From NCBI GenBank assembly GCA_965202685.1, contig OZ241853.1, forward strand, positions 133,333 through 197,332: 64,000 bases of DNA, in the 5' to 3' direction. Made by a program: the position numbers and the translations under genes. The notes under the pieces were generated by a model, which saw nothing but the letters and a program-made list of their open reading frames with translations, searched no databases and was not told the DNA's origin. Positions 31,548 to 57,177 of this stretch are shown piece after piece (the first letter of the stretch is position 1; the number at the start of each line of letters is the position of its first letter). This stretch comes from Gammaproteobacteria bacterium. Lineage in GTDB: Bacteria > Pseudomonadota > Gammaproteobacteria > Eutrophobiales > Eutrophobiaceae.

Positions 31548-31660
31548 GGCGTAGCTTGGGGTCGGGCTTTTTACGACACGCTGTAAATCCATCCTTGGAC
31601 GCTCTCGGCGCGGCCATCCAGGCCGCGCAGGGTCTTAAAAGCCCGACCCCAAGCTACGCC
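31548..31660 (-). repeat. PAL element copy 2
   Basis: Same TIRs as copy 1 (gtagcttggggtcgggcttttt...aaaagcccgaccccaagctacgcc). Confidence 0.8.
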
Positions 31661-31682
31661 CATGCCCTTATCCCACAACACT

Positions 31683-31807
31683 TTTAGCGACGGAAATTTT
31701 TCGTCAGGCAAGCGGCATGATGAGCGAGGTCAGGAGTGTATATTAAATACATGACTGACCAAGCGAGGAAATGCCGCGATGCATGGCGGAAAATTAACAA
31801 GCTAAAA
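31683..31807 (-). repeat. R unit, inverted orientation
   Basis: ttttagcgacggaaatttttcgtcagg...atggcggaaaattaacaagctaaaa. The following gene ORF reads through it in-frame. Confidence 0.7.
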
Positions 31808-31819
31808 TATAATGGCGGC

Positions 31820-33817
31820 ATGTTTGCAATGACAAATCGCATTGGAGAACGGATCAGGTTCCATGGCTTGGCGTTAGCCTTGTTGTTCTTGTTTTTGATA
31901 GCGGGCCTCGCCATCGTCGATGACTACGGCGTTTCGATAGACACAGGCAACCAACGGGCTATCGCCCTCAGCACCTTCAACTATGTCCTGCATGACAACC
32001 CAGGCCGGTTGCGAGTGGACCCTGAGCGCTTCTACGGCGCCGCCTTCGAGGCGCCCCTGTTCCTGTTGACGGAACAGGTCCTGGGGCTGGAAGACCCGCG
32101 CCATGTCTATTTGGCCCGCCATGCCCTGACCCATCTGTTTTTTCTGCTTGGCGGGTTCTGTTGCTATCTGCTGGCGTTTCGATTGTCCGGCGACCGGCTG
32201 GCGGCGCTGTTGGTCATGTTGCTGTTCCTGCTGTCCCCGCGCCTGTACGCCCATTCCTTCTTCAACAGCAAGGATGCGCCGTTCGCCAGCGCCTTCGTCA
32301 TGGCCTTGCTCTTTGCGAGCCACGCCTTTGACAGGGACTCGGTGGGAGCCTATCGGTGGTGCGGGGCGGCGGCGGGGCTTCTCGTCAACCTGCGCATCAT
32401 GGGCGTGGTTCTGTTTGCCGTCGTGTTGGTCTTTCGAGCCTGGGCCTGGTTCCGGGCCGAGGGATGCGCGGCGCGGCGGCGGGCGGCGACCACCACTGGG
32501 GTCTTCGCCCTGTGGGGGGTCGTTGTCTTGTTCATCAGCCTGCCTTATCTCTGGGGCGACCCCGTAGGGCGGCTGGCGGAAATGCCAGCGGTGCTGAGCG
32601 ATCATCCAAAAGTGAACCTGGTATTGTTTGGGGGCGAAGTATTCTCCAGCACGGCCCTGCCTTGGGATTACTTTCCGCGCTGGTTCGCCATCAGCCAGCC
32701 GCCGGTGACCTTGTTGCTGGGGCTGTTGGGCATGGGGGCCCTGGGCCTTGCCGCTGGAGGCGTCTTCCGACGCGGCGCAGGCGCCGGGCCGGGCGCGGCG
32801 TGGGGCGCCGCCGAGTTGCGCTTCGGCGTCTTGCTTGCGGCCTGCTTTGCGTTGCCCCTGGTTGCCGTCGTTCTGCTACGGCCCAATATCAGAACCGGCT
32901 GGCGGTATTTCCATTTCCTGCACGGGCCTTTTTGCCTGCTGGCGACCTTCGCCCTGATGGGATTGCGCCAGCTGTCGGCGCGGGGGTTGCAAAGAAAATG
33001 GCTCGGCGGCGCGGCGTGCGCGCTGACAGCGGCGGGGCTGGGCGTCGTGGCGGTCCAGATGGCGCAGATCCATCCCCACCAATATCTCTATTTCAACTTT
33101 TTTGTGGACCGCAAAACCCCGGAACAGCTGCGAACCCGCTACCCCATGGATTACTGGAACATGGCGATGCGACAGGGCTATGAACTCGCCCTGCGCCACG
33201 CGCCTTCCTCTCCCGCCATCAACCTGAAGTCCTTAGCCACGCCCATAGCAAACCCCTTGCAAGGCCTCGTCCGCAATGTGGGGATCCTGCCCGCCACGGC
33301 CCGGGCCCGGCTCACTTACGACCCGGCCCGAAACCCGGACTTTTATCTGGGCGGTTTCGCGCTGGACGATTATTTCCCCCCCGTTCTCCACCAAATCAAG
33401 GTCTATAACAACACCATTATGACCGTGGCCACGCCGGACCTGGCCCGAGTTGACCCGGCGGTGGCGGACGAGTACCGCGCCTTGCTGCAGGCGGCGACGG
33501 CGGGGGAACCGGTGGCGCGGGAGAGCGGCTATGAAGTGTACCGGCACGGCCGGCGGCTGGCGTGGGTGAAGGAGGGTTGCGGGCCGGGCGAGTTGTTGCG
33601 CCTGTTCCGGCTGGCATTCTATCCAGTGGATGCGAGCTATGTGTCCCCGCACCGCCAACGGCAGGGCAACAATGTCAAGCTGGTCTATGGGGCGCGGCTG
33701 GACGGCAAATGCCTGGGGGCAGCGTGGTTGCCGGAGTACGCGGTGTCCCGGGTGCGGTTGCGCCAGCGGTCGGATGAGGGGGGGAAGTTGTGGGAAACCG
33801 AATTCCACCTTTTTTAG
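31820..33817 (+). CDS. array paralogue 3 (665 aa from ATG at 31820; ORF open from 31736)
   Basis: MFAMTNRIGERIRFHG... preceded by ctaaaatataatggcggcATG. Its C-terminal domain is near-identical to that of paralogue 4. Confidence 0.75.
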   Translation: MFAMTNRIGERIRFHGLALALLFLFLIAGLAIVDDYGVSIDTGNQRAIALSTFNYVLHDNPGRLRVDPERFYGAAFEAPLFLLTEQVLGLEDPRHVYLARHALTHLFFLLGGFCCYLLAFRLSGDRLAALLVMLLFLLSPRLYAHSFFNSKDAPFASAFVMALLFASHAFDRDSVGAYRWCGAAAGLLVNLRIMGVVLFAVVLVFRAWAWFRAEGCAARRRAATTTGVFALWGVVVLFISLPYLWGDPVGRLAEMPAVLSDHPKVNLVLFGGEVFSSTALPWDYFPRWFAISQPPVTLLLGLLGMGALGLAAGGVFRRGAGAGPGAAWGAAELRFGVLLAACFALPLVAVVLLRPNIRTGWRYFHFLHGPFCLLATFALMGLRQLSARGLQRKWLGGAACALTAAGLGVVAVQMAQIHPHQYLYFNFFVDRKTPEQLRTRYPMDYWNMAMRQGYELALRHAPSSPAINLKSLATPIANPLQGLVRNVGILPATARARLTYDPARNPDFYLGGFALDDYFPPVLHQIKVYNNTIMTVATPDLARVDPAVADEYRALLQAATAGEPVARESGYEVYRHGRRLAWVKEGCGPGELLRLFRLAFYPVDASYVSPHRQRQGNNVKLVYGARLDGKCLGAAWLPEYAVSRVRLRQRSDEGGKLWETEFHLF

Positions 33818-33937
33818 CTTGTTAGTTTTCCGCCATGCGTCCTGGCGTTTCTTTGCTCGGGCGGTCATGTGCTATTTGCACACTCCCTTCCTCGCTCATC
33901 ACGCCAGTTGCCTGACGAAAAACTTCCGTCGCTAAAA
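33812..33937 (+). repeat. R unit
   Basis: Starts at the stop codon of paralogue 3 (ttttTAGcttgttag). Confidence 0.7.
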
Positions 33938-33940
33938 TGG

Positions 33941-34059
33941 TTGTAGTTTTCCGTTATTCTGCCTGGCGCTTCCGCGTTCAGTCAGTCATGTGCCATTACG
34001 CACACTCCTTCCTTCACTTGTCGCGCCAGTTGCCTAACGAAAAACTTCCGTCGCTAAAA
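33941..34059 (+). repeat. R unit, R2 variant
   Basis: ttttccgttattctgcctggcgcttccgcgttcagtcagtcatgtgccat...cgaaaaacttccgtcgctaaaa. Confidence 0.65.
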
Positions 34060-34112
34060 TGGTTGCGGGATAACGGAAAACTAACAAGCTAAAAGGGATG
34101 ACGGGGTGCATA

Positions 34113-34238
34113 GGCGTAGCTTGGGGGCGGGCTTTTAAGACCCTGTGCGGCCCGGATGGCCGCACCGAGAGCGTCCAGGGATGGATTTACAGCGTGTCGT
34201 AAAAAGCCCGCCCCCAAGCTAGGCCCTCGGGTGTCGCG
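34113..34238 (+). repeat. PAL element copy 3
   Basis: gcgtagcttgggggcgggcttttaagaccc...gtcgtaaaaagcccgcccccaagctaggccctcgggtgtcgcgc. Confidence 0.8.
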
Positions 34239-34306
34239 CCAGTTGCCTGACGAAAAACTTCGGTCGCTAAAACACACTTGCAGGCTCCGTTATTTTGCCT
34301 GGCGCA

Positions 34307-34320
34307 TTGACCGCTATAAT
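34307..34320 (+). promoter_or_regulatory. TTGACCGCTATAAT promoter-like motif
   Basis: TATAAT lies 6 nt upstream of ATG 34327. Confidence 0.3.
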
Positions 34321-34326
34321 AGCGAC

Positions 34327-36330
34327 ATGGCGGCAATGACCAATTACATTGGAGAACGGGCCCGATTCCATAGTCTAGCGCTGATCGTATGCGCTTTGTT
34401 CCTCCTTGCGGGCCTCGCCATCGTCGATAACTACGGCGTTTCGATAGACACAGGCAACCAACGGCATATCGCCCTCAGCACCCTCAACTATGTCCTGCAT
34501 GACGACCCAGGCCGGTTGCGAGTGGCCGTTGACCGCTTCACCGGCGCCGCCTTCGAGGCGCCCCTGCTGCTGTTGACGGAACGGGTCCTGGGGCTGGAAG
34601 ACCCGCGCCATGTCTATTTGGCCCGCCATGTCCTGACGCACCTGTTTTTTCTAATCGGCGGGTTCTGTTGCTATCTGTTGGCGTTTCGATTGTCCGGCGA
34701 CCGGCTGATCGCGCTGTTGGTCATGGCGCTGTTCCTCCTGTCCCCGCGCATCTACGCTCATTCCTTCTTCAACAGCAAGGATCCGGTGGCTGCCAGCGCC
34801 TTCGTCATGGCCTTGCTCGTTGTGTGTCGCGCCTTTGACAAGGACTCGGTGGGGGCCTATCGGTGGTGCGGGGCAATGGCGGGACTTGTCGTCAACCTGC
34901 GCATCTTGGGCATCGCCCTGTTTGCCATCGTGTTGGTCTTTCAGGCCTGGGCCTGGTTCCGGGCCGGGGGGGGCGCGGCGCGGCGGCGGGTTGTAGTGAC
35001 CACTGGCGCTTTCGCCCTGTGGGGAATCGTTGTCTTGTTCATCAGCCTGCCCTATCTCTGGGGCGACCCCGCAGGGCGGCTGGCGGAAATGGTCGAGATT
35101 ATGCGCGATCATCCTACCGTTTATCTGGTATTGTTCCGGGGGCAGGTGTTTTCCGGCGCGGCGTTGCCTTGGGACTATATGTTGCGCTGGTTCGCCATCA
35201 GCCAGCCGCCGGTGACCTTGTTGTTGGGGCTGTTGGGCCTAGTGGCCCTGGGCCTTGCCGCCAGGGGCGTCGTCAGACGCGGCGCAGGCGCCGGGCCCGG
35301 GCCGGGCGCGGCGTGGGGCGCCGCCGAGTTGCGCCTCGGCATATTGCTCGCAACCTGCTTTGCGTTGCCCCTGGTTGCCTTTGCGCTGTTGCGACCCACC
35401 TCCCTCAATGACTGGCGGCATTTTTATTTCCTGCACGGGCCTTTTTGCCTGCTGGCGACCTTCGCCCTGATGGGGTTGCGCCAATTGCCGGCGCGGGGGT
35501 TGCAAAGAAAATGGCTCGGCGGCGCGGCCTGCGCGCTGACAGCGGCGGGGCTGGGCGTCGTGGCGGTCCAGATGGCGCAGATCCATCCCCACCAATATCT
35601 CTATTTCAACTTTTTTGTGGACCGCAAAACGCCGGAACAGTTGCGAGCCCGCTACTCTATGGATTACTGGAACATGGCGATGCGACAGGGCTATGAACTC
35701 GCCCTGCGCCATGCGCCTTCCTCTCCCGCCATCAACCTGAAATCCTTAGCCACGCCCATAGGAAACCCCTTGCAGGGCCTCGTCCGCAATGTGGGGATCC
35801 TGCCCGCCACGGCCCGAGCCCGGCTCACTTACGACCCGGCCCGAAACCCGGACTTCTATCTGGGCGGTTTCTCGTTGGACGATTATTTCCCCCCCGTTCT
35901 CCACCAAATCAAGGTCTATAACAACACCATTATGACCGTGGCCACGCCGGATTTGTCCCGAGTTGACCCGGCGGTGGCGGACGAGTACCGCGCCTTGCTT
36001 CAGACAGCGACGGCGGGGGAACCGGTGGCGCGGGAGAGCGGCTATGAAGTGTACCGGCGCGGCTCGCAGTTAGCATGGGTGAAAGAGGGATGCGGGCCGG
36101 GCGAGTTGTTGCGCCTGTTCCGGCTGGCGTTCTATCCAGTGGATGCGAGCTATGTGTCCCCGCACCGCCAACGGCAGGGCAACAATGTCAGGCTGGTCTA
36201 TGGGGCGCGGCTGGACGGCAAGTGCCTGGGGGCGGCGCGGTTGCCGGAGTACGCGGTGTCCCGGGTGCGGTTGCGCCAGCGGTCGGATGAGGGGGGGAAG
36301 CTATGGGAAACCGAATTCCACCTTTTTTAG
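34327..36330 (+). CDS. array paralogue 4 (667 aa; ORF open from 34156)
   Basis: MAAMTNYIGERARFHS... Its central ~1 kb is near-identical to paralogue 14. Its C-terminal domain is near-identical to paralogue 3. Confidence 0.75.
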   Translation: MAAMTNYIGERARFHSLALIVCALFLLAGLAIVDNYGVSIDTGNQRHIALSTLNYVLHDDPGRLRVAVDRFTGAAFEAPLLLLTERVLGLEDPRHVYLARHVLTHLFFLIGGFCCYLLAFRLSGDRLIALLVMALFLLSPRIYAHSFFNSKDPVAASAFVMALLVVCRAFDKDSVGAYRWCGAMAGLVVNLRILGIALFAIVLVFQAWAWFRAGGGAARRRVVVTTGAFALWGIVVLFISLPYLWGDPAGRLAEMVEIMRDHPTVYLVLFRGQVFSGAALPWDYMLRWFAISQPPVTLLLGLLGLVALGLAARGVVRRGAGAGPGPGAAWGAAELRLGILLATCFALPLVAFALLRPTSLNDWRHFYFLHGPFCLLATFALMGLRQLPARGLQRKWLGGAACALTAAGLGVVAVQMAQIHPHQYLYFNFFVDRKTPEQLRARYSMDYWNMAMRQGYELALRHAPSSPAINLKSLATPIGNPLQGLVRNVGILPATARARLTYDPARNPDFYLGGFSLDDYFPPVLHQIKVYNNTIMTVATPDLSRVDPAVADEYRALLQTATAGEPVARESGYEVYRRGSQLAWVKEGCGPGELLRLFRLAFYPVDASYVSPHRQRQGNNVRLVYGARLDGKCLGAARLPEYAVSRVRLRQRSDEGGKLWETEFHLF

Positions 36331-36355
36331 CTTGTTACATCCGCCATGCAACCTA

Positions 36356-36483
36356 GCGCGACACCCGAGGGCATAGCTTGGGGCAGGGCTTTTTACGACA
36401 CGCTGTGAATCCATCCCTGGACGCTCTCGGCGCGGCCATCCAGGCCGCGCAGGGTCTTAAAAGCCCTGCCCCAAGCTACGCCC
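36356..36483 (-). repeat. PAL element copy 4
   Basis: gcgcgacacccgagggcatagcttggggcagggcttttt...aaaagccctgccccaagctacgcc. Confidence 0.8.
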
Positions 36484-36503
36484 ATGCCCTTATCCCACAA
36501 CTA

Positions 36504-36629
36504 TTTTAGCGACGGAAGTTTTTCGTTAGGCAACTGGCGCGACAAGTGAAGGAAGGAGTGTGCATAAAGCACATGACTGACTGAACGCGGAAGCGCCAGG
36601 CAGAATAACGGAAAACTAACAAGCTAAAA
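36504..36629 (-). repeat. R unit (R2 variant), inverted
   Basis: ttttagcgacggaagtttttcgttaggcaactggcgcgacaagtgaagg...ggaaaactaacaagctaaaa. Confidence 0.65.
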
Positions 36630-36707
36630 TGAAAAACTTCCGTCGCTAAAACACACTCGCAGGCTCCGTTATCCCGCCTGGTGGATTGACCGCTATATAA
36701 TGGTGGC

Positions 36708-38687
36708 ATGTCCACAATAACAAGCCGCATTGGAGAACGGGTGCGGTTCCATCGCTTAGCGTTGATTGCATGGTGCCTGTTTTTGGTTACGGGCCTCGCC
36801 ATCGTCGATGACTACGGCGTCGCGCCGGATGCGGCAAACCAGTTTCTTACCTCCATCAACACCGTCAACTATGTTCTGCATGGGGACCAAACCCTGTTGC
36901 AAACCGTTGACCGCTTTTACGGCTCCGCTTTCGAGTTGCCCCTGTTGCTGTTGATGGAATGGGGCCTGGGGCTGGAAGACCCGCGCCATATCTATTTGGC
37001 CCGCCATGTCCTGATGCATCTGTTTTTTCTGCTTGGCGGGTTCTGTTGCTATCTGTTGGCGTTTCGATTGTCCGGCGACCGGCTGATCGCGCTGTTGGTC
37101 ATGTTGCTGTTTCTCCTGTCCCCGCGCCTCTACGCCCATTCCTTCTTCAACAGCAAGGATGCGGTGTTCGCCAGCGCCTTCGTCATGGCCTTGCTCTTTG
37201 CGAGCCGCGCCTTTGACAAGGACTCGGTGGGGGCCTATCGGTGGTGCGGGGCGGCGGCGGGGCTTCTCGTCAACCTGCGCGTCATGGGCGTGGTTCTGTT
37301 TGCCGTCGTGTTGGTCTTTCGGGCCTGGGCCTGGTTCCGGGCCGGGGGGGGCGCGGCGCGGCGGCGGGTTGTGGCGGCCACTGGGGTCTTTGCCCTGTGG
37401 GGGGGCCTTGTCTTGTTCATCAGCCTGCCCTACCTCTGGGGCGACCCCATAGGGCGGCTGGCGGAAATGCCAGCGGTGCTGGCCGATCATCCTATCGTTC
37501 TTCATCAATTGTTCCGCGGTCAGGCGTTTTCCAGCGCGGCATTGCCTTGGGACTACCTTCCGCGCTGGTTCGCCATCAGCCAGCCGCCGGTGACCTTATT
37601 GTTGGGCCTGTTGGGCCTAGTGGCCTTGGGCCTTGCCGCTGGGGGCGTCGTCAGGCGCGGCGCGGGCGCCGGGCCGGGGCGCGGTTTGGGCGCCGCCGAG
37701 TTGCGCTTCGGCGTCCTGCTGGCAACCTGCTTCGCGTTGCCCCTAGTTGCCTTTGTCCTGTTGCGGCCCAACACCCTCCATGGCTGGCGGCATTTTTATT
37801 TTCTGCATGGGCCTTTTTGCCTGCTGGCGACCTTCGCCCTGATGGGGTTGCGCCAGCTGTCGGTTCGGGGGTTGCGAAAAGGATGGCTCGGCGGCGCGGC
37901 GTGCGCGCTGACAGCGGCGGGGCTGGGCGCAGCGGCGGTGGAGATGACGCAGATCCATCCCCATCAGTATCTCTATTTCAACTTTCTGGTGGACCGGAAG
38001 ACCCCGGAAGGGTTGCGCGAGCGCTACGAGACGGATTATTGGAACATGATGTTGCGACAGGGCTATGAGTGGCTCCTGAAAGAGACCCCGGAGGCCGCCA
38101 TCAACATGGTGCCGCGGAGAGTTGAGGCGTTGGCGAACCTCAATCGCAATGTGCAGATTCTCCCCCCGGCGGCCCGCAACCGGTTGACCTACGATCCGAA
38201 ACGCGACCCGGATTTCTATGTAGGCGGAAGCGGAAGCATAAGGCAAAGCCTCGAAGAACCTTTCCCTCCCGTTCTCCATCGGTTCAAGGTCTATAACAAC
38301 ACGATGTTGACCATTTCCACGCCGGATTTGTCCCGGGTTGACCCGGCGGTGGCGGATGCGTATCGGGCTTTGCATTGGACAGCGACGGCGGGGGCGCCAA
38401 CGGCGCGGGCGGGCGGCTATGAAGTCCACCGGCACGGCTCGCGGCTGGCGTGGGTGAAGGAGGCTTGCGAGCCTGGGGCGCTGAGGCGCAAGTTCCAGCT
38501 GGCTCTTTACCCGGCGGACGCGGGCCGTTTGCCGACCCATCGCCAGAAATGGGGCTACTTTACAATCAGAGCCTCTGGGGTGCGGTTTGACGGCAAGTGC
38601 CTGGGGGCGCGACGACTGCCGGATTTCGCCCTAACCCGGATTCGCCTGGGGCAAAAGGGGAAGTGGGAAGTGGAGGTGCCTTTTTAG
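36708..38687 (+). CDS. array paralogue 5 (659 aa)
   Basis: MSTITSRIGERVRFHR... preceded by ggattgaccgctatataatggtggcATG. Confidence 0.75.
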   Translation: MSTITSRIGERVRFHRLALIAWCLFLVTGLAIVDDYGVAPDAANQFLTSINTVNYVLHGDQTLLQTVDRFYGSAFELPLLLLMEWGLGLEDPRHIYLARHVLMHLFFLLGGFCCYLLAFRLSGDRLIALLVMLLFLLSPRLYAHSFFNSKDAVFASAFVMALLFASRAFDKDSVGAYRWCGAAAGLLVNLRVMGVVLFAVVLVFRAWAWFRAGGGAARRRVVAATGVFALWGGLVLFISLPYLWGDPIGRLAEMPAVLADHPIVLHQLFRGQAFSSAALPWDYLPRWFAISQPPVTLLLGLLGLVALGLAAGGVVRRGAGAGPGRGLGAAELRFGVLLATCFALPLVAFVLLRPNTLHGWRHFYFLHGPFCLLATFALMGLRQLSVRGLRKGWLGGAACALTAAGLGAAAVEMTQIHPHQYLYFNFLVDRKTPEGLRERYETDYWNMMLRQGYEWLLKETPEAAINMVPRRVEALANLNRNVQILPPAARNRLTYDPKRDPDFYVGGSGSIRQSLEEPFPPVLHRFKVYNNTMLTISTPDLSRVDPAVADAYRALHWTATAGAPTARAGGYEVHRHGSRLAWVKEACEPGALRRKFQLALYPADAGRLPTHRQKWGYFTIRASGVRFDGKCLGARRLPDFALTRIRLGQKGKWEVEVPF

Positions 38688-38732
38688 CTTTTAGCTTGTT
38701 ACATCCGCCATCCTGCCTGGCGCGCCAACCAA

Positions 38733-38754
38733 GGCATAGCTTGGGGCAGGGCTT
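38733..38754. repeat. PAL element, truncated (left TIR only)
   Basis: ggcatagcttggggcagggctt followed by unrelated sequence. Confidence 0.5.
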
Positions 38755-38773
38755 ACTACTGGCCATTACCTAT

Positions 38774-38900
38774 TTTTTAGCGACGGAAGTTTTTCGTCAG
38801 GCAAGCGGCATGATGAGCGCGGGAGGGAGTGTATATTAAATACATGACCGACCGCGTGAAGAAATGCCGCGATGCATGGCGGAAAACTAACAAGCTAAAA
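38774..38900 (-). repeat. R unit, inverted, fused in-frame to paralogue 6
   Basis: ttttagcgacggaagtttttcgtcagg...gcatggcggaaaactaacaagctaaaa is directly joined to cgggcccgattccat of the gene. Confidence 0.7.
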
Positions 38901-40832
38901 CGGGCCCGATTCCATGGCTTGGCGTTGAGCGTGTGGGCCTTGTTCCTGATTACGGGCCTCGCCATCGTCGATGACTACAGCGTCGCGCCGGATGCGGCAG
39001 ACCAGCATGGTATCGGCAACAACACCCTCAACTATGTCCTGCATGACGACCAAACCCTTTTGCGAACCCATGACCGCTTCTACGGCGCCGCCTTCGAGGC
39101 GCCCCTGTTCCTATTGACGGAACGGGTCCTGGGGCTGGAAGACCCGCGCCATGTCTATCTGACCCGCCATGTCCTGACCCACCTGTTTTTTCTAATCGGC
39201 GGGTTCTGTTGCTATCTGTTGGCGCGGCGCTTGTCCGGCGACCGGCTGGTCGCGTTGTTGGTCATGTTGTTGTTCCTGCTGTCCCCGCGTCTCTACGCCC
39301 ATTCCTTCTTCAATGTCAGGGATCCAATGTTCGCCAGCGCCTTCGTCATGGCCCTGCTCTTTGTGAGCCGCGCCTTTGACAGGGACTCGGTGGGGGCCTA
39401 TCGGTGGGGCGGGATGGCAGTGGGACTTCTCGTCCACCTGCGCATCATGGGCGTGGTTCTGTTTGCCATCGTGTTGGTCTTTCGGGCCTGGGCCTGGTTT
39501 CGGACCGAAGGGGGCGCGGCGCGGCGGCGGATTGTGGCAACCACTGGCGCTTTCGCCCTGTGGGGGGGCCTTGTCTTGTTCGTCGGCCTGCCCTATCTCT
39601 GGGGCGACCCCGCAGGGCGGCTTTCAGAATATTGGATGGTGTTGGCCGATCATCCTGTCGTTCAACGCGAACTGTTCCGGGGTCAGGCGTTTTCCGGCGC
39701 GGCGTTGCCTTGGAATTATATGTTGCACTGGTTCGCCATCAGCCAGCCGCCGGTGACCTTGTTGTTGGGTCTGTTGGGCTTGGTGGCCTTGGGCCTTGCC
39801 ACTGGGGGCGTCGTCAGACGCGGCGCGGGCGCGGCATGGGGGGGTGCCGAATTGCGATTTGGCGTCTTGCTCGCAACCTGCTTCGTGTTGCCCCTGCTCG
39901 CCTTTGTCCTGTTGCGGCCCAACACCATCAATGGCTGGCGACATTTTTATTTCCTGCACGGGCCTTTTTGCCTGCTGGCGACCTTCGCCCTGATGGGGTT
40001 GCGCCAGCTGTCGGTTCAGGGGTTGCGAAAAAAATGGGTTGGCGGCGCGGCTGGCGCGCTGACAGCGGCGGGACTGGGCGCGACGGCGCTGGAGATGGCG
40101 CAGATCCATCCTAACCAGCATCTCTATTTCAACTTTTTTGTGGACCGAAAGACCCCGGAACGGCTAAACGAACGCTACGAGACGGATTACTGGAACATGA
40201 TGTTGCGGCAAGGGTATGAACACATCCTGCGGCAAGCGCCCTCTTCCACCATTAACATGAGGCCGCGAGCGTCAGCGAACAACCGCTATGTGCAGATCCT
40301 GCCGGCGGCGATCCGGAGCCGGTTCATCTACGACCCTGTTCGGGATCCGGATTTCTATCTAGTAAGAAACGCCGGAATTCCGCCGCCAGGCGCGCTTAAG
40401 GACTCTTTTCCCCCCGTCCTCCACCGGTTCAAGGTCTATAACAACACGGTGTTGACCGTATCCACGCCGGATTTGTCCCGGGTTGACCCGGCGGTGGCGG
40501 ATGAGTATCGGGTCTTGCATCGGGCGGCGACAGCGGGGGAACCGGTGGCTCGCGGGGGAGGCTTCGATGTGCGCCTGCATGGCAACCGGCTGGCGTGGGT
40601 GAAGGAGGCTTGCGAGCCTGGGGCGTTGATGCATCCGTTCCGGCTCAGGCTTTATCCGGCGAACGCGGGCCGTTTGCTGGCCCACCACCGGAAACGGGGC
40701 TACTTTACAATCAGCGCCAGCGGGGTGCGGTTTGACGGCAAGTGCCTGGGGGCGGCGCGGTTGCCGGATTTCGCCCTGGACCGGGTTCGCCTAGGGCAAC
40801 AAGGGAGGTGGGAAGTTGACATCCCTTTTTAG
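38829..40832 (+). CDS. array paralogue 6, 5'-end replaced (ORF starts inside an inverted R unit; no own promoter/ATG)
   Basis: The translation MYIKYMTDRVKKCRDAWRKTNKLK is derived from the R unit up to the junction 38900/38901. From RARFHG onward the protein is a normal paralogue. Confidence 0.55.
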   Translation: MYIKYMTDRVKKCRDAWRKTNKLKRARFHGLALSVWALFLITGLAIVDDYSVAPDAADQHGIGNNTLNYVLHDDQTLLRTHDRFYGAAFEAPLFLLTERVLGLEDPRHVYLTRHVLTHLFFLIGGFCCYLLARRLSGDRLVALLVMLLFLLSPRLYAHSFFNVRDPMFASAFVMALLFVSRAFDRDSVGAYRWGGMAVGLLVHLRIMGVVLFAIVLVFRAWAWFRTEGGAARRRIVATTGAFALWGGLVLFVGLPYLWGDPAGRLSEYWMVLADHPVVQRELFRGQAFSGAALPWNYMLHWFAISQPPVTLLLGLLGLVALGLATGGVVRRGAGAAWGGAELRFGVLLATCFVLPLLAFVLLRPNTINGWRHFYFLHGPFCLLATFALMGLRQLSVQGLRKKWVGGAAGALTAAGLGATALEMAQIHPNQHLYFNFFVDRKTPERLNERYETDYWNMMLRQGYEHILRQAPSSTINMRPRASANNRYVQILPAAIRSRFIYDPVRDPDFYLVRNAGIPPPGALKDSFPPVLHRFKVYNNTVLTVSTPDLSRVDPAVADEYRVLHRAATAGEPVARGGGFDVRLHGNRLAWVKEACEPGALMHPFRLRLYPANAGRLLAHHRKRGYFTISASGVRFDGKCLGAARLPDFALDRVRLGQQGRWEVDIPF

Positions 40833-40952
40833 CTTGTTAATTTTCCGCCATGCATCGCGGCGTTTCCTCGCTCGGTCAGTCATGTATCTGATATACACTC
40901 CTTCCCGCGCTCATCACGCCGCTTGCCTGACGAAAAATTTCCGTCGCTAAAA
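40827..40952 (+). repeat. R unit
   Basis: ttttagcttgttaattttccgccatgcatcgcggcgtttcctcgctcggtcag...ccgtcgctaaaa. A hybrid leader/R2 fragment follows it (40953-41075). Confidence 0.7.
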
Positions 40953-41090
40953 CACACTTGCAGGCTCCGTTATTTTGCCTGGCGCTTCCGCGTTCAGTCA
41001 GTCATGTGCTGTTTGCACACTCCTTCCTTCACTTGTCGCGCCAATTGCCTAACGAAAAACTTCCGTCGCTAAAAATGTTTAAGGGCATAG

Positions 41091-41216
41091 GCGTAGCTTG
41101 GGGTGGGGCTTTTAAGACCCTGCGCGGCCTGGATGGCCGCGCCGAGAGCGTCCAGGGATGGATTCACAGCGTGTCGTAAAAAGCCCCACCCCAAGCTAGG
41201 CCCTCGGGTGTCGCGC
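41091..41216 (+). repeat. PAL element copy 6
   Basis: gcgtagcttggggtggggcttttaagaccc...gtcgtaaaaagccccaccccaagctaggccctcgggtgtcgcgc. Confidence 0.8.
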
Positions 41217-41319
41217 TAGGCAAAATAGTGGAAAATTAACAAGCTAAAACTGACCGAGCGAGGAAACGCCGCGCCACATGGCGAAAGCTAACAAGCTAAA
41301 AGGGTAATATGGCGACATT

Positions 41320-43302
41320 ATGGTGGCTATGATAAATCACATTGGAGAACAAGCCCGGTTCCATCGCTTAGCGTTGATTGCATGGTCCCTGTTCTTAATC
41401 GTGGGCCTCGCCATCGTCGATGACTACGGCGTCTCGTATGATGCGAAAGAGCAGTTTCTTACCTCCATCAACACCCTCAACTATGTCCTGCATGGGGACC
41501 AAACCCTGTTGCAAACCCATAACCGCTTCTACGGCGCCGCTTTCGAGTTGTCGCTGCTGCTGTTGATGGAAGGGGTCCTGGGGCTGGAAGACCCGCGCCA
41601 TGTCTATTTGACCCGCCATGTCCTGACGCACTTGTTGTTTCTAATCGGCGGGTTCTGTTGCTATCTGCTGGCGCGGCGCTTGTCCGGCGACCGGCTGGTG
41701 GCGTTGTTGGTCATGGCACTGTTCCTGCTGTCCCCGCGCCTGTACGCCCATTCCTTCTTCAACAGCAAGGATGCGGTGTTCGCCAGCGCCTTCGTCATGG
41801 CCTTGCTCTTTGCGAGCCGCGCCTTTGACAGGGACTCGTTGGGGGCCTATCGGTGGTGCGGGGCGGCGGCGGGGCTTCTCATCCACCTGCGCGTCATGGG
41901 CGTGGTTCTGTTTGCCGTCATGTTGGTCTTTCGGGCCTGGGCCTGGTTTCGGGCCGGGGGGGACGCGGCGCGGCGGCGGGTGGCGGCGACCGCTGGCGCT
42001 TTCGCCCTGTGGGGTGTCCTTGTCTTGTTCATCAGCCTGCCCTATCTCTGGGGCGACCCCGCAGGGCGGCTGGCGGAAATGGTCGTGGTGTTGGCCGACC
42101 ATCCTACGGTTCTTCATCAATTGTTCCGCGGTCAAGTGTTTTCCAGCGCGGCGTTGCCTTGGGATTATGTGTTGCGCTGGTTCGCCATCAGCCAGCCGCC
42201 GGTGACCTTGTTGTTGGGGCTGTTGGGCCTGGGAGCTTTGGGCCTTGCCGCTGGGGGCGTCGTCAGACGCGGCGCGGGCGCCGGGCCGGGGCGTGGCTTG
42301 GGGGGCGCCGAGTTGCGCTTCGGCGTCTTGCTCGCAACCTGCTTCGTGTTGCCCCTGCTCGCCTTTATCCTGTTGCGGCCTAACACCATCAATGGCTGGC
42401 GGCATTTTTATTTCCTGCACGGGCCTTTTTGCCTGCTGGCGACCTTCGCCCTGATGGGGTTGCGCCAGTTGCCGGCGAGGGGGGCGCGAAAAGGATGGGT
42501 TGGGGGCGCGGCTTGCGCATTGACAGTGGCGGGACTGGGCGCGGCGGCATTGGAGATGGCGCAAATCCATCCCCACCAATATCTTTATTTCAACTTTTTA
42601 GCGGACAGGAAGACCCCGGAAGGGTTGCGCGAGCGCTACGAGACATACTGGAACATGATGTTGCGGCAAGGGTATGAACACATCCTGCGGCAAGGACCCG
42701 CTTCCACCATTAACATGAGGCCGCGAGTGCTTCACTCGCGGGCTGACATCAACCGCAATGTGGAGATTCTCCCGGCGGCGGCCCGAAGCCGGTTCACCTA
42801 CGACCCCGCTCGGGACCCGGATTTCTACCTGGCAAGAAACGCCGGAATTCCGCCGCTAGGCGCGCTTAAGGACTCTTTTCCTCCCGTCCTCCACCGGTTC
42901 AAGGTCTATAACAACACAATGATGACAGTTTCCACGCCGGATTTGTCCCGGGTTGACCCGGCGGTGGCGGATGAGTATCGGGCTTTGCATCGGGCGGCGA
43001 CGGCGGGGGAACCAGCGGCCCGGGCGGGGGGCTTCGATGCGCACCTGCATGGCAACCGGCTGGCGTGGGTAAAGGAGGCTTGCGAGCCTGGGGCGTTGAT
43101 GTCGCCGTTCCGGCTCAGGCTTTACCCGGCGGACGCGGGCCGTTTGCCGACCCATCACCAGAAACGGGGCTACTTTACAATCAGCGCCTCTGGGGTGCGG
43201 TTTGACGGCAAGTGCCTGGGGGCGGCGCGGTTGCCGGATTTCGCCCTGGCCCGGATTCGCCTGGGGCAAGCAGGGAGGTGGGAAGTTGACATCCCCTTTT
43301 AG
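41320..43302 (+). CDS. array paralogue 7 (660 aa)
   Basis: MVAMINHIGEQARFHR... preceded by an inverted R terminal fragment and gggtaatatggcgacattATG. Confidence 0.75.
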   Translation: MVAMINHIGEQARFHRLALIAWSLFLIVGLAIVDDYGVSYDAKEQFLTSINTLNYVLHGDQTLLQTHNRFYGAAFELSLLLLMEGVLGLEDPRHVYLTRHVLTHLLFLIGGFCCYLLARRLSGDRLVALLVMALFLLSPRLYAHSFFNSKDAVFASAFVMALLFASRAFDRDSLGAYRWCGAAAGLLIHLRVMGVVLFAVMLVFRAWAWFRAGGDAARRRVAATAGAFALWGVLVLFISLPYLWGDPAGRLAEMVVVLADHPTVLHQLFRGQVFSSAALPWDYVLRWFAISQPPVTLLLGLLGLGALGLAAGGVVRRGAGAGPGRGLGGAELRFGVLLATCFVLPLLAFILLRPNTINGWRHFYFLHGPFCLLATFALMGLRQLPARGARKGWVGGAACALTVAGLGAAALEMAQIHPHQYLYFNFLADRKTPEGLRERYETYWNMMLRQGYEHILRQGPASTINMRPRVLHSRADINRNVEILPAAARSRFTYDPARDPDFYLARNAGIPPLGALKDSFPPVLHRFKVYNNTMMTVSTPDLSRVDPAVADEYRALHRAATAGEPAARAGGFDAHLHGNRLAWVKEACEPGALMSPFRLRLYPADAGRLPTHHQKRGYFTISASGVRFDGKCLGAARLPDFALARIRLGQAGRWEVDIPF

Positions 43303-43351
43303 CTTTTAGCTTGTTAGTTTTCCGTTATCCTTCCTGCGCGATCCTCGATGG

Positions 43352-43463
43352 CATAGCTTGGGGCAGGGCTTTTTACGACACGCTGTGAATCCATCCCTGG
43401 ACGCTCTCGGCGCGGCCATCCAGGCCGCGCAGGGTCTTAAAAGCCCTGCCCCCAAGCTACGCC
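43352..43463 (-). repeat. PAL element copy 7
   Basis: gcatagcttggggcagggctttttacgacacgctgtgaatcc...cccaagctacgcc. Confidence 0.8.
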
Positions 43464-43465
43464 CC

Positions 43466-43591
43466 TTTTAGCTTGTTAATTTTCCGCCATGCGGCGCGGC
43501 ATTTCTTCGCTCGGTCAGTCATGTATTTGATATACACTCCTTCCCTCGCTCATCATGCCGCTTGCCTGACGAAAAATTTCCGTCGCTAAAA
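43466..43591 (+). repeat. R unit
   Basis: ttttagcttgttaattttccgccatgcggcgcggcatttcttcgctcggtcag...ccgtcgctaaaa. Confidence 0.7.
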
Positions 43592-43674
43592 TAGTCGCGG
43601 GCTCCGTTATCCTGCCTGGCAAAAATTTCCGTCGCTAAAACACACTCGCAGGCTCCGTTATTTTGCCTAGCGCA

Positions 43675-43688
43675 TTGACCGCTATAAT
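43675..43688 (+). promoter_or_regulatory. TTGACCGCTATAAT promoter-like motif
   Basis: TATAAT at 43683-43688. ATG at 43695. Confidence 0.3.
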
Positions 43689-43694
43689 GGCGGC

Positions 43695-45695
43695 ATGGCG
43701 GCAACGATAAATCGCATTGGAGAACGGATCCGGTTCCATCGCTTAGCGTTGATTGCGGGCGCACTATTCTTAATCGTGGGCCTCGCCATCGTCGATGACT
43801 ACGGCGTCTCGCCGGATGCGGGAGACCAGTTTCTTATCACCATCGACACCCTCAACTATGTCCTGCATGGGAACCCAGGCGAGTTAGGAGTGCTTGCTCA
43901 CCGCTTCACTGGCGTCGCCTTCGAGGCGCCCCTGTTGCTGTTGATGGAATGGGTCCTGGGGCTGGAAGACCCGCGCCATATCTATTTAACCCGCCATGTC
44001 CTGATGCACCTGTTTTTTCTGCTTGGCGGGTTCTGTTGCTATCTGTTGGCGTTTCGCTTGTCCGGCGACCGGCTGGTCGCGCTGTTGGTCATGTTGCTGT
44101 TCCTGTTGTCCCCGCGCCTCTACGCCCATTCCTTCTTCAACAGCAAGGATCCGGTGGCTGCCAGCGCCTTCGTCATGGCCTTGCTCTTTGCGAGCCGCGC
44201 CTTTGACAAGGACTCCTTGGGGGCCTACCGGTGGTGCGGGGCAATGGCGGGACTTGTCGTCAACCTGCGCATCTTGGGCATCGCCCTGTTTGCCATCGTG
44301 TTGGTCTTTCAGGCCTGGGCCTGGTTCCAGGCCGGGGGGGGCGCGGCGCGCCGACAGGTGGCAACGGCCACTGGGGTTTTTGCCCTGTGGGGTGTCCTTG
44401 TCTTGTTCATCAGCCTGCCCTATCTCTGGGGCGACCCCGCAGGGCGGCTGGCGGAAATGGTCGCGATTATGCGCGATCATCCTACCGTTCATCGAGAATT
44501 GTTCCGGGGTCAAGTGTTTTCCAGCGCGGCGTTGCCTTGGGACTATATGTTGCGCTGGTTCGCCATCAGCCAGCCGCCGGTGACCTTGTTGTTGGGGTTG
44601 TTGGGCCTGGGAGCCTTGGGTCTCGCCGCTGGGGGCGTCGTCAGACGCGGCGCGGACGCCGGGCCGGGCGCGGCATGGGGCGCCGCCGAGTTGCGCTTCG
44701 GCGTCCTGCTCGCAACCTGCTTTGCGTTGCCCATGGTTGCCTTTGCGCTGTTGCGACCCACCTCCCTCACTGGCTGGCGGCATTTTTATTTCCTGCACGG
44801 GCCTTTTTGCCTGTTGGCGACCTTCGCCCTGATGAGGTTGCGCCAGCTGCCGGTTCGGGGGGTGCGAAAAGGATGGCTCGGCGGCGCGGCTTGCGCACTG
44901 ACGGCGGCGGGGCTGGGCGCGGCGGCGTTGGAGATGGCGCAGATCCATCCCCACCAATATCTTTATTTCAACTTTTTAGCGGACCGGAAGACCCCGGAAC
45001 GGTTGCGCGAGCGCTACGAGACAGATTACTGGAACATGGTGTTGCGACAGGGCTATGAATGGATCCTGAAAGAAACCCCGGAGGCCGCCATCAACATGAG
45101 GCCGCGGGGAGTTGATGCGTTGGCGGACATCAACCATAATGTGCAGATTCTCCCCCCGGCGGCCCGCAACCGCTTCACTTACGATCCGAAACGCGACCCG
45201 GATTTCTATTTAGGCGGAAGCGGAAGCGGAAACACAAACACAAGGCAAGGCCCCCTGCTCAAAGATCCTTTCCCTCCCGTTCTTCACCGGTTCAAGGTCT
45301 ATAACAACACGATGTTGACCGTGTCCACGCCGGATTTGTCCCGGGTTGACCCGGCGATGGCGGATACGTATCGGGCTTTGCATCGGGCGGCGACAGCAAG
45401 GGAACCGGCGGCCCGGGCGGGGGGCTTCGATGTGCACCTGCATGGCGACCGGCTGGCGTGGGTGAAGGAGGCTTGCGAGCCCGGGGCGCTGAGGCGCGAG
45501 TTCCGGCTGGCTCTTTACCCGGCGGACGCGAGCCTCTTGCTGGCCCATCACCAGAAACGGGGCTACTTTACAATCAGCGCCTCTGGGGTGCGATTTGACG
45601 GCAAGTGCCTGGGGGCGGCGCGGTTGCCGGACTTCGCCTTAACCCGGATTCGCCTGGGGCAACGAGGGAAGTGGGAAGTGGAGGTGCCGCTATAA
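43695..45695 (+). CDS. array paralogue 8 (666 aa)
   Basis: MAATINRIGERIRFHR... The stop TAA lies inside the TATAAT of the next copy (ccgcTATAAt). Confidence 0.75.
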   Translation: MAATINRIGERIRFHRLALIAGALFLIVGLAIVDDYGVSPDAGDQFLITIDTLNYVLHGNPGELGVLAHRFTGVAFEAPLLLLMEWVLGLEDPRHIYLTRHVLMHLFFLLGGFCCYLLAFRLSGDRLVALLVMLLFLLSPRLYAHSFFNSKDPVAASAFVMALLFASRAFDKDSLGAYRWCGAMAGLVVNLRILGIALFAIVLVFQAWAWFQAGGGAARRQVATATGVFALWGVLVLFISLPYLWGDPAGRLAEMVAIMRDHPTVHRELFRGQVFSSAALPWDYMLRWFAISQPPVTLLLGLLGLGALGLAAGGVVRRGADAGPGAAWGAAELRFGVLLATCFALPMVAFALLRPTSLTGWRHFYFLHGPFCLLATFALMRLRQLPVRGVRKGWLGGAACALTAAGLGAAALEMAQIHPHQYLYFNFLADRKTPERLRERYETDYWNMVLRQGYEWILKETPEAAINMRPRGVDALADINHNVQILPPAARNRFTYDPKRDPDFYLGGSGSGNTNTRQGPLLKDPFPPVLHRFKVYNNTMLTVSTPDLSRVDPAMADTYRALHRAATAREPAARAGGFDVHLHGDRLAWVKEACEPGALRREFRLALYPADASLLLAHHQKRGYFTISASGVRFDGKCLGAARLPDFALTRIRLGQRGKWEVEVPL

Positions 45696-45704
45696 TATGG
45701 CGGC

Positions 45705-47729
45705 ATGGCGGCAATGACAAATCGCATTGGAGAACGGGCCCGATTCCATAGTCTGGCACTGGTCGTGTGGTGCCTGTTTTTGATTACGGGCCTCGTCATC
45801 GTCGATGACTACGGCGTCTCGTGGGATACGGAAATCCAGCGTTTTGTCGCCATCAACACCGTCAACTATGTCCTGCATAGCGACCCTGCCCTGTTACACA
45901 ATGACGTTGATCACTTCTACGGCGCCGCCTTCGAGTTGCCCCTGTCCCTGTTGACGGAACGGATCCTGGGGCTAGAAGACCTGCGCCATGTCTATTTGGC
46001 CCGCTATGTCCTGACGCACCTGTTGTTTCTAATCGGCGGGTTCTGTTGCTATCTGTTGACGCGGCGCTTGTCCGGCGACCGGCTGATCGCGCTGTTAGTC
46101 ATGCTACTGTTCCTGCTGTCCCCGCGTCTTTACGCCCATTCCTTTTTCGACACCAAGGATGCGGTGTTCGCCAGCGCCTTCGTCATGGCCTTGCTCGTTG
46201 TGAGTTGCGCCTTTGACAGGGATTCGGTGGGGGCCTATCGGGGGTGCGGGGCGGCGGCGGGGCTTCTCATCAACCTGCGCATCATGGGCGTGGTTCTGTT
46301 TGCCGTCGTGTTGGTCTTTCGGACCTGGGCCTGGTTCCGGGCCGAGGGGAGCGCGGCGCGCCAACGGATTGTGGCGACCACTGGGGTCTTTGCCCTGTGG
46401 GGGGCCTTGTCTTTGTTCATCAGCCTGCCCTATCTCTGGGGCGACCCCGCAGGGCGTCTTTCAGAATATTGGATAGTGTCGGCCGACCATCCTAGCTACC
46501 ACGGCCACCAATTGTTCCGGGGTCAAGTGTTTTCCAGCGCGGCGTTGCCTTGGGATTATGTGTTGCACTGGTTCGTCATCAGCCAGCCGCCGGTGACCTT
46601 GTTGTTGGGTCTGTTGGGCCTAGTGGCCCTGGGCCTTGCCGCTGGGGGCGTCGTCAGACGCGGCGCAGGCGCCGGGCCGGGCGCGGCATGGGGCGCCGCC
46701 GAGTTGCGCTTCGGCGTCCTGCTGGCAACCTGCTTTGCGTTGCCCCTGGTTGCCTTTGTCCTGTTGCGGCCTAACACCATCAATGGCTGGCGGCATTTTT
46801 ATTTCCTGCACGGACCTTTTTGCCTGCTGGCGACCTTCGCCCTGATGGGGTTGCGCCAGCTGTCGGTTCGGGGGTTGCGAAAAGAATGGGTTGGCAGCGC
46901 GGCTTGCGCGCTGACGGCGGCGGGGCTGATCGTCGTGGCGGTCCAGGCGGGGCTGATCGTCGTGGCGGTCCAGATGGCGCGACTCCATCCCCATCAATAT
47001 CTCTATTTCAACTTCTTGGCGGACCGGAAGACCCCGGAACGGTTGCGCGAGCGCTACGAGATGGATTACTGGAACATGATGTGGCGACAGGGCTATGAGT
47101 GGCTCCTGAAAGAGACCCCGGAGGCCGCCATCAACATGAGGCCGCGGAGAGTTGATGCGTTGGCGAACATCAACCGCAATGTGCAGATCCTCGCCCCAGC
47201 GGCCCGCAACCGGTTCACCTACGACCCGAAACGCGACCCAGATTTCTATTTAGGCGGAAGCGGAAACACAAACACAAGGCAAAACCCCCTGCTCAAAGAT
47301 CCTTTCCCTCCCGTTCTTCACCGGTTCAAGGTCTATAACAACACGATGTTGACCGTGTCCACGCCGGATTTGTCCCGGGTTGACCCGGCGGTGGCGGATG
47401 AGTATCGGGCTTTGCATCGGGCGGCGACGGCGGGGGAACCGGCGGCGCGGGCGGGGGGCTTCGATGCGCACCTGCATGGCGACCGGCTGGCGTGGGTGAA
47501 GGAGGCTTGCGAGCCCGGGGCGCTGAGGCGCAAGTTCCAGCTGGCTCTTTACCCGGCGGACGCGGGCCGTTTGCCGGCCCAGCACCGGAAACGGGGCTAT
47601 TTTACAATCAGCGCCTCTGGGGTGCGGTTTGATGGCAAGTGCCTGGGGGCGGCGCGGTTGCCGGACTTCGCCCTAACCCGGATTCGCCTGGGGCAGCCAG
47701 GGAAGTGGGAAGTTGACATCCCCTTTTAG
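45705..47729 (+). CDS. array paralogue 9 (674 aa) with an in-frame 27-bp tandem duplication
   Basis: MAAMTNRIGERARFHS... The duplicated peptide is AGLIVVAVQ (46934-46987). Confidence 0.75.
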   Translation: MAAMTNRIGERARFHSLALVVWCLFLITGLVIVDDYGVSWDTEIQRFVAINTVNYVLHSDPALLHNDVDHFYGAAFELPLSLLTERILGLEDLRHVYLARYVLTHLLFLIGGFCCYLLTRRLSGDRLIALLVMLLFLLSPRLYAHSFFDTKDAVFASAFVMALLVVSCAFDRDSVGAYRGCGAAAGLLINLRIMGVVLFAVVLVFRTWAWFRAEGSAARQRIVATTGVFALWGALSLFISLPYLWGDPAGRLSEYWIVSADHPSYHGHQLFRGQVFSSAALPWDYVLHWFVISQPPVTLLLGLLGLVALGLAAGGVVRRGAGAGPGAAWGAAELRFGVLLATCFALPLVAFVLLRPNTINGWRHFYFLHGPFCLLATFALMGLRQLSVRGLRKEWVGSAACALTAAGLIVVAVQAGLIVVAVQMARLHPHQYLYFNFLADRKTPERLRERYEMDYWNMMWRQGYEWLLKETPEAAINMRPRRVDALANINRNVQILAPAARNRFTYDPKRDPDFYLGGSGNTNTRQNPLLKDPFPPVLHRFKVYNNTMLTVSTPDLSRVDPAVADEYRALHRAATAGEPAARAGGFDAHLHGDRLAWVKEACEPGALRRKFQLALYPADAGRLPAQHRKRGYFTISASGVRFDGKCLGAARLPDFALTRIRLGQPGKWEVDIPF

Positions 47730-52930: not shown

Positions 52931-52965
52931 ACACACTTGCAGGCTCGGTTATTTTGCCTGGCGCA

Positions 52966-52979: not shown

Positions 52980-52985
52980 GGCGGC

Positions 52986-57176: not shown

Positions 57177-57177
57177 C

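Follow-up and report, generated by a model that had tools for sequence, protein, structure and literature searches.

A palindromic repeat resembling the TwoAYGGAY RNA motif in the rearranging spacers of a bacterial glycosyltransferase gene array

The TwoAYGGAY motif (RF01731; Weinberg et al., 2010) is an RNA structure with a long closing stem and two (A/N)YGGAY-type loops, followed by UUUAC-GCG. According to the original description the closing stem is "often very large, e.g. 24 base pairs", and the alignment contains several copies from Psychromonas ingrahamii set among other repeats (PMC2864571). Binding of CsrA has been put forward on the basis of the GGA loops, as a proposal only (PMC4333381). 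A second RNA, the Yersinia small RNA (sRNA) Ysr224 (RF02770), is among the most frequently annotated "sRNAs" when all within-strain instances are counted (PMC9029176), and such a high instance count would fit a repeat-like element. Here we describe PAL, an imperfect palindrome in the intergenic spacers of a gene array of a gammaproteobacterium (assembly GCA_965202685.1, contig OZ241853.1, positions 133,333 to 197,332; this stretch of 64,000 nt is referred to as the window). With moderate confidence, we interpret PAL as a GC-rich lineage variant of a TwoAYGGAY/Ysr224-type hairpin repeat that is carried passively in spacers resembling bacterial interspersed mosaic elements (BIMEs) and that may function as an RNA hairpin.

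PAL shares with TwoAYGGAY the long closing stem, the two loops and the UUUAC-GCG that follows them, as well as the occurrence of several copies per genome among other repeats. It differs in having C(C/U)GGAU instead of AYGGAY as loop 1 and in lacking the 5' strand of the long hairpin 2; moreover, the GC content is 62%, the copies are found in one gene array only and the Rfam model does not recognize them. The opposite strand of PAL resembles Ysr224 (GUAAAU-CCAUCC ... GCC-AUCC-GGC), and this Ysr224-like strand is the one in sense with the upstream gene in most of the PAL copies that lie close to a stop codon.

Among the DNA repeats, repetitive extragenic palindromes (REPs), BIMEs and REPINs resemble PAL in being extragenic palindromes that occur either way round, mosaicked with conserved short motifs, between co-oriented genes and downstream of stop codons; REPINs also consist of two inverted repeats around a spacer and form a long hairpin. 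Unlike REP/BIME, PAL has no conserved GTAG with a REP hairpin and no visible gene for a REP-associated tyrosine transposase (RAYT), its conserved part is the interior and not the ends, and it occupies, as far as the sequence examined goes, one locus instead of being dispersed over the genome. Lacking both the REP-type hairpin and a RAYT gene, it was rejected as a REP/RAYT element. The Correia (CREE/NEMIS) and ERIC/IRU elements are likewise 100–155-bp non-coding imperfect palindromes with terminal inverted repeats of approximately 25 nt, and their transcripts form long hairpins that are possible RNase III substrates, which is plausible for the perfect 20–25-bp stem of PAL as well. Correia elements, found at hundreds of unrelated loci, duplicate a TA target, whereas neither duplication nor dispersal was seen for PAL in the sequence examined.

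The core of PAL (105–107 nt, TAGCTTG...CAAGCTA) consists of two 20-nt arms around a 65-nt interior, in which two small hairpins carry NGGAU loops. A palindromic extension, GGGCN...NGCCC, brings the element to approximately 115 nt and the arms to 25 nt, with 96–100% complementarity between the arms. A preliminary description, made from the sequence of the window, had reported an element of approximately 112–130 bp with 22–25-bp inverted repeats, compared with 105–107 nt for the core found here. The same description regarded ggccctcgggtgtcgcgc as an extension of PAL, but this sequence does not belong to the element: flank modules of about five alternative types exist, and it is one of them. We assigned to PAL the strand whose hairpin loops read GGAU, that is, the TwoAYGGAY-like strand. 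The reference copy has the following features:

34117–34221, + strand: reference copy of PAL, 105-nt core, identified by covariance model (132.4 bits) and folds
34117–34136, + strand: left arm, TAGCTTGGGG-NN-GGGCTTTT, in which NN is variable and covaries with the right arm
34145–34165, + strand: hairpin 1, GTGCGGCC-CGGAT-GGCCGCAC, 8-bp stem with one compensatory pair
34173–34186, + strand: hairpin 2, GTCC-A(G/A/T)GGAT-GGAT, loop of the AYGGAY type
34202–34221, + strand: right arm, AAAAGCCC-NN-CCCCAAGCTA

The connection to TwoAYGGAY runs through an unrelated organism. A metagenome scan with a 21-nt pattern from the PAL interior, for which about one chance match was expected, gave a single match, on an unrelated contig of 38% GC (L014). 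The L014 element and PAL have a 24-nt core that is identical and includes hairpin 2, and a GGAU-loop hairpin stands at the same spacing in both; the 27-bp closing stem of L014 is entirely unlike that of PAL in sequence. Rfam identifies the L014 element as a TwoAYGGAY RNA (46.6 bits against a gathering score of 43), and its opposite strand is similar to Ysr224. A model built exclusively from 24 PAL copies (R2) recovers it over its full length with 67.5 bits (E = 2e-12) and 33 of 33 pairs standard, and gave no match on 80 kb of control sequence. In PAL, loop 2 reads A(G/A/U)GGAU, and exactly AUGGAU in four copies, while loop 1 reads C(C/U)GGAU or UUGGAU, retaining the GGAU but not the first A; the closing stem of 20–25 bp around the two hairpins is of the kind described for the long P1 of TwoAYGGAY. 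Judged by these sequences, PAL is a divergent relative of the TwoAYGGAY class, though not a member by the Rfam cut-off.

The L014 element (7283–7405) itself lies between genes for a class-III aminotransferase and an FG-GAP/ASPIC protein, 58 nt after a stop codon and in the same Ysr224-like sense as most of the PAL copies close to a stop codon. Read in the direction of the genes, the inner hairpin runs into AAGG-TTTTT, a terminator-like arrangement. Comparison of the element with E. coli genomes by blastn gave no match.

Both strands of PAL fold into a very stable long hairpin, as had been anticipated in the preliminary description: the predicted RNA energies are -72.6 kcal/mol for the + strand (z = -8.0) and -69.6 kcal/mol for the - strand (z = -7.7), and the DNA fold reaches -43.2 kcal/mol (z = -8.3). 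In an alignment of 21 sequences 96.2% of the cells are paired and nine pairs have changed on both sides, a level of pairing and covariation reached by none of 500 shuffles. Both the arms and hairpin 1 covary. The central dinucleotide of the arm occurs as GC, TC, CA, TG, TT or GT, with a matching partner arm in most copies, and at the compensatory pair of hairpin 1, 12 copies have U-A and eight have C-G. No PAL copy is half-changed at this pair, the sole unpaired cell being the misaligned row of L014.

The array in which PAL is found comprises 16 tandem co-oriented paralogs of approximately 660 aa each, from 27532 to the end of the window (64000), whose homologues (drawn from ENA/JGI metagenomes and two complete genomes, approximately 2.97 Mb) carry PF13231 (PMT_2, the ArnT-like membrane glycosyltransferase family). 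The spacers between these genes are pieced together as mosaics from a few modules, which occur in either orientation. Module M1, of approximately 125 bp, begins with TTTTAGCTTGTTA, which overlaps each stop codon, and ends with a 35-nt element termed motif A; module M2 is the carrier of PAL. Of 29 copies, 21 have motif A 20–150 nt upstream and TAACAAGCTAAAA approximately 35 nt after PAL when read along the TwoAYGGAY-like strand. Nineteen of about 31 copies are located 11–69 nt downstream of a stop codon, and 17 of these 19 in the Ysr224-like sense.

A census of the window yielded ten full copies, one truncated copy and one deletion footprint. The 22-nt arm pattern TAGCTTGGGGGCGGGCTTTTTA (up to three mismatches) matched 18 times against none expected from 100 shuffles, and the covariance model returned exactly ten full copies, bearing out the ten full copies reported initially. 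The orientations reported there all match, as do the positions, save that the start at 36356 had been placed about 15 nt too far to the left. Besides the reference copy, these are:

27238–27342, - strand: copy marking the left edge of the array; CGCCCC-TTTTAGCTTGTTA comes next on the + strand
31552–31656, - strand: copy with arm variant TC/GA, stop codon 42 nt before
36374–36478, - strand: copy with arm variant CA/TG, stop codon 43 nt before
38737–38754, no strand given: truncated copy, the left arm alone (TAGCTTGGGGCAGGGCTT), as already noted in the preliminary description
41094–41198, + strand: copy with arm variant TG/CA, in a spacer block that is inverted relative to the block at 36325–36629
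43354–43459, - strand: copy with a stop codon 51 nt before
47916–48020, + strand: copy identical to that at 41094–41198
52697–52801, + strand: copy in which the usual flank pair (F1 ... CCCCTTTTAGC) encloses a flipped interior
55042–55048, no strand given: deletion footprint, a single TAGCTTG; the ortholog at L013 7526–7630 holds a full PAL
57380–57484, + strand: copy whose orthologous L013 spacer is without PAL
59791–59895, + strand: copy whose arm pairing (GGGGGTGGGC vs GCCCGCCCCC) contains a G-T wobble

PAL has no coding capacity, as had been stated, although listed open reading frames (ORFs) that are over-extended begin at ATG codons within it. Those at 34156 and 52761 open ORFs of 724 and 740 aa that run in frame into the downstream gene, and gene callers over-extend genes adjacent to PAL (for example P0016, 698 aa). 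For annotation, the PAL-internal ATGs thus lead to over-extended gene calls.

Six loci from related genomes were compared with the window, and in four of them (L011, L013, L016, and L017) the flanks were also checked for recombinases. These loci contributed about 20 further PAL copies with an almost invariant interior; over approximately 30 copies from at least five genomes the interior is near-constant, though the array genes are only about 75% identical. The L017 array is without any PAL. The restriction of PAL to array spacers holds for the window, with none in its other 27 kb, and more widely no copy was found in approximately 48 kb of non-array DNA (window 1–27169, L011 beyond 6044, L016 beyond 13002, and L017 beyond 10903). 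Scanning public genome contigs, a collection that lacks or masks the source lineage, for the arm pattern yielded ten single matches in unrelated taxa, about the chance level; a scan of viral contigs gave nothing and blastn of PAL against plasmids gave noise alone.

Comparison of orthologous spacers shows how PAL copies are gained and lost. L013 is orthologous to window 52909–64000 (96–99% identity) and L015 to window 31754–46754 (94–99%), and despite this identity the orthologous spacers differ by gains, losses and rearrangements of whole modules. Where L013 reads TAGCTTG-PAL-...-TAGCTTG, the window has a single TAGCTTG (55042–55048), the result of a deletion between 7-bp repeats. This TAGCTTG-TAGCTTG deletion is the sole clean case of presence and absence, and it is not an empty insertion site. 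Spacer 13 of the window carries PAL and its ortholog in L013 does not. Spacers 6 and 7 of the window hold PAL, and their counterparts in L015 are PAL-free junctions of about 20 and 60 nt; approximately 360 bp of the spacer with the copy at 43354–43459, including that copy and the adjacent M1, are missing from L015. In coordinates, spacers of 430–520 bp in the window (40833–41355 and 43303–43730) have shrunk to 20–60 bp in L015 (9968–10001 and 11981–12036), with flanking genes that are 95–99% identical, and spacer turnover is therefore far faster than that of the coding sequence. An inverted-repeat-flanked PAL block of approximately 440 bp is present between the GntR and TonB-receptor genes of L013 and absent from L016 and L017. 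The rearrangement junctions lie at several short homologies (TAGCTTG, TTTTAGC/GCTAAAA, GCCTGGCG, and motif A), which argues for homology-driven or slippage recombination and against one site-specific core; for this reason a single-core site-specific recombination system was rejected.

The interior of PAL flips within its arms. The spacers at L013 12252 and L013 16893 have an identical 66-nt left flank and left arm (GGGGGCGGGC) and an identical right arm (variant TTAAAGGCCCTGCCCC) and right flank, the two arms being asymmetric, and between them the 65-bp interior is inverted, with 64 of 65 positions matching as reverse complement. This pair of orientations comes from two paralogous spacers and not from a single locus within a population. 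Likewise, the flank pair F1...CCCCTTTTAGC occurs with either orientation of the interior, four copies one way and two the other. Arm homogenization and spacer inversion are documented outcomes of template switching between inverted repeats (PMC8604942, PMC8794818), so that a recombinase is not required for the flips.

PAL appears to be neither autonomous nor mobilized by a transposase and shows no hallmarks of transposition in the sequence examined; its copies travel in larger duplicated and inverted spacer modules. In the explanation that we favor, the hairpin repeat related to TwoAYGGAY and Ysr224 multiplies, inverts and vanishes together with these inverted-repeat-flanked modules, probably through recombination or slippage at the short homologies named above, and replication template switching between the arms would be the simplest source of both their complementarity and the occasional 65-bp flip. 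Within an intergenic transcript PAL would form a very stable RNA hairpin. Close to a stop codon, this could mark or protect the 3' end or offer a double-stranded processing site, and the two conserved NGGAU loops, or their complement, may provide a platform for a dimeric RNA-binding protein. The most likely function of PAL would thus be that of an RNA hairpin serving as a 3'-end, processing or protein-binding element.

Several results weigh against this interpretation. The orientation of PAL relative to the genes is mixed (12 + vs 17 -) and the strand-asymmetry test revealed no preference: one strand is the more stable in 15 of 22 unique copies, and the mean difference between the strands amounts to 0.5 kcal/mol. 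These results lend no support to a cis-acting RNA role tied to one strand. Scans of PAL for sigma-70 promoters and standard terminators found none, nor did manual inspection for promoters, the terminator scanner being blind to stems with a 65-nt loop. About one third of the copies are followed by CGCCCC-TTTTAGCTTGTT (CGCCCC-TTTT), with pairing of the flanks that lengthens the stem; the others are without a T-run. PAL is dispensable for the array, as L017 has none. The match to L014 is the only one to a pattern expected to match about once by chance, and what makes it relevant is the extended match together with the common architecture. Three PAL copies gave no match to the Rfam TwoAYGGAY model (RF01731) even at E ≤ 10, and searched by E-value against Rfam they returned generic microRNA-hairpin matches and weak Ysr224 matches alone, while a search of the whole window at gathering thresholds gave no match; because PAL fails the Rfam model, its link to TwoAYGGAY is indirect, via L014. 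The similarity to Ysr224 is weak: PAL scores 14–20 bits and L014 24.8 bits, where the gathering score is 70. Finally, covariation in a DNA palindrome can arise mutationally and is no proof of selection on RNA structure: since template switching yields both, covariation and flips need neither RNA selection nor a recombinase.

The foremost of the alternatives, which we nevertheless consider unlikely, is that PAL is a palindrome that perpetuates itself without any role as RNA or DNA and stays uniform through template switching and through gene conversion between the tandem spacers. Its confinement to a highly recombinogenic array, its unbiased orientation and its dispensability (none in L017, and several window spacers without it) would all be expected of such a sequence, as would the existence of decayed, truncated and deleted copies. 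What this does not accommodate is the near-invariance of the 65-nt interior over some 30 copies in at least five genomes beside array genes that are approximately 75% identical. Moreover, the core is found again, its stems fully compensated, in an unrelated organism of low GC content and in a curated family of Rfam, which drift or gene conversion within one array is insufficient to explain.

Ranked second, and improbable, is the reading of PAL as a miniature inverted-repeat transposable element (MITE) like Correia or ERIC, a non-autonomous element mobilized in trans via its terminal inverted repeats that has colonized the array spacers. The preliminary description had pointed to this likeness, and for size, shape, imperfect palindrome, non-coding nature and hairpin it holds: the dimensions, the 20–25-nt terminal inverted repeats and the occurrence in both orientations fit a MITE. 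Close strains differ in the presence of PAL, and the block in the GntR-TonB receptor spacer of L013 but not of L016 and L017, as well as the multiple copies of TwoAYGGAY in Psychromonas, could be read in the same way. The differences between strains, however, are deletions at microhomologies or changes of whole modules. None of 23 inspected copies has a target-site duplication, for which a check had been proposed: the flanks (GGGCN/NGCCC, about five module types) continue the palindrome and contain no direct repeats. There is no transposase gene nearby in the window, and no copy outside the arrays in the 48 kb of other DNA. The interior, shared with an unrelated organism, is more conserved than the variable arms, the reverse of what is seen in MITEs, and in the flipped pair the arms stay with their flanks, fitting inversion in place and not re-insertion. 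In the sequence examined, the mobile-element part of the initial description does not hold up. It had named two observations that would count against it, a lack of distribution independent of longer duplicated spacers and a lack of stable secondary structure; the former was found, yet the structure is very stable.

Genes for surface glycans, arranged in arrays, are typical targets of phase variation. A third reading, placed below the MITE and likewise improbable, is programmed inversion, in which a trans-acting recombinase flips the 65-bp interior and blocks of 280–440 bp, and so would switch glycosyltransferase paralogs on and off or a TwoAYGGAY-type RNA between sense and antisense. As in known invertons (fimS and the capsule promoters of Bacteroides), inverted repeats bracket a segment with two orientations beside surface-glycan genes. 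The exact inversion of the interior between identical flanks and arms, and the same flank pair with either orientation, speak for it, as do spacers that diverge far faster than the surrounding genes. So does the architecture of the blocks, since perfect inverted repeats of 13–25 nt bracket PAL-containing blocks of 278–373 bp, with the TTTTAGCTTGTTA repeat overlapping the upstream stop codon, and a block that points one way in one spacer points the opposite way in another. This bracketed arrangement is inverton-like, yet no recombinase was found, neither in the window nor in the flanks of L011, L013, L016 and L017. No orthologous pair of spacers differs by a simple inversion; the junctions are complex, with several short homologies and no single core. 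PAL contains no consensus promoter, 65 bp is far shorter than the segments of known invertons and very short for protein-mediated synapsis, all array genes keep one orientation, and template switching accounts for the flips without an enzyme.

A more speculative variant, and a long shot, is that PAL, and with it the TwoAYGGAY motif and its oddly long P1 stem, would be a miniature DNA switch and not a fixed RNA gene, its arms serving as the inverted repeats and its interior flipping within spacer blocks that flip themselves. If this were true, each of the 16–19 glycosyltransferase paralogs would be phase-varied independently, the PAL transcript would toggle between a form with GGA loops (of the CsrA protein-binding type) and its complement, and the glycans of the cell surface would vary combinatorially.

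An attC-like site in an integron-like array, in which each gene is a cassette ending in a folded palindrome, is very improbable, for although co-oriented genes followed by uniform imperfect palindromes of approximately 110 bp recall the Vibrio cholerae repeats, and an unrelated GntR gene stands among the same modules in L013, there is no RYYYAAC/GTTRRRY core pair flanking the palindrome and no integrase gene, five of 16 window spacers are without PAL, the "cassettes" are paralogs of one gene, and PAL occurs in both orientations.

The bracketed blocks and motif A are exemplified by:

34238–34272, + strand: motif A (GCCAGTTGCCTGACGAAAAACTTCCGTCGCTAAAA) at the end of M1
36325–36629: PAL-bearing spacer block, bracketed by the perfect 13-nt inverted repeat TTTTAGCTTGTTA / TAACAAGCTAAAA

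The same bracketed arrangement is found at 31504–31807 and 40827–41249. Motif A is the most conserved spacer element after PAL and is present in 22 copies in the array spacers, three of them inverted, from 27441 to 62259. It resembles a weak promoter (TTGCCT-N19-TAAAAN), although the -10-like hexamer varies at its final base. Directly after the stop codon at 33831–33847, and similarly in other M1 modules, stands a small hairpin that leads into a T-rich run (CGCCATGCGTCCTGGCG-TTTCTTTGCT); as a candidate terminator it is more conventional than PAL.

In nearly every paralog a TATAAT-like hexamer precedes the ATG by 6–7 nt (TATAAT-GGCGGC-ATG; for example at 34315–34329 and 45696–45707), which suggests mRNAs with very short leaders or none; at tight gene junctions the upstream stop codon falls within this hexamer. 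The paralogs at 38829–40832 and 55164–57176 are without the usual N-terminus (MAAMTNRIGE) and are fused via a AAGCTAAAA junction to an inverted spacer module, giving an alternative or absent start, and may be silent or N-terminally switched copies. The paralog at 50296–52300 is split into overlapping ORFs (50296–51393 and 51227–52300) and is probably a frameshift pseudogene; a similar split gene is found in L012 (7692–9709).

The array continues beyond the window, as its L013 ortholog has about three further genes before the GntR and TonB-receptor genes, and related arrays end beside rsmA-pdxA-surA-lptD (L011). The GntR regulator gene of L013 (19158–20800), which is unrelated to the array, is embedded in array-type modules, with AAGCTAAAA and TATAAT-N6-ATG before it and a site-F1-PAL module and inverted M1 modules after it; its flanks in L016 and L017 are plain and short. 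The genes in the 27 kb upstream of the array are for ordinary proteins of metabolism and the envelope, and none is for a recombinase or transposase. A search for tRNA and tmRNA genes found none, and a literature search on the gene array yielded nothing relevant.

TwoAYGGAY has been an orphan motif since 2010. PAL contributes approximately 30 close copies, some of them flipped, deleted or with swapped arms, which reveal how the long closing stem behaves at the level of DNA, through homogenization of its arms and inversion of its interior. It also places the motif in a defined setting, between the GT-C-type glycosyltransferase paralogs of an array whose spacers rearrange fast, and thereby makes it testable whether TwoAYGGAY acts as an RNA, a DNA structure or a switch, and whether the array is phase-variable.

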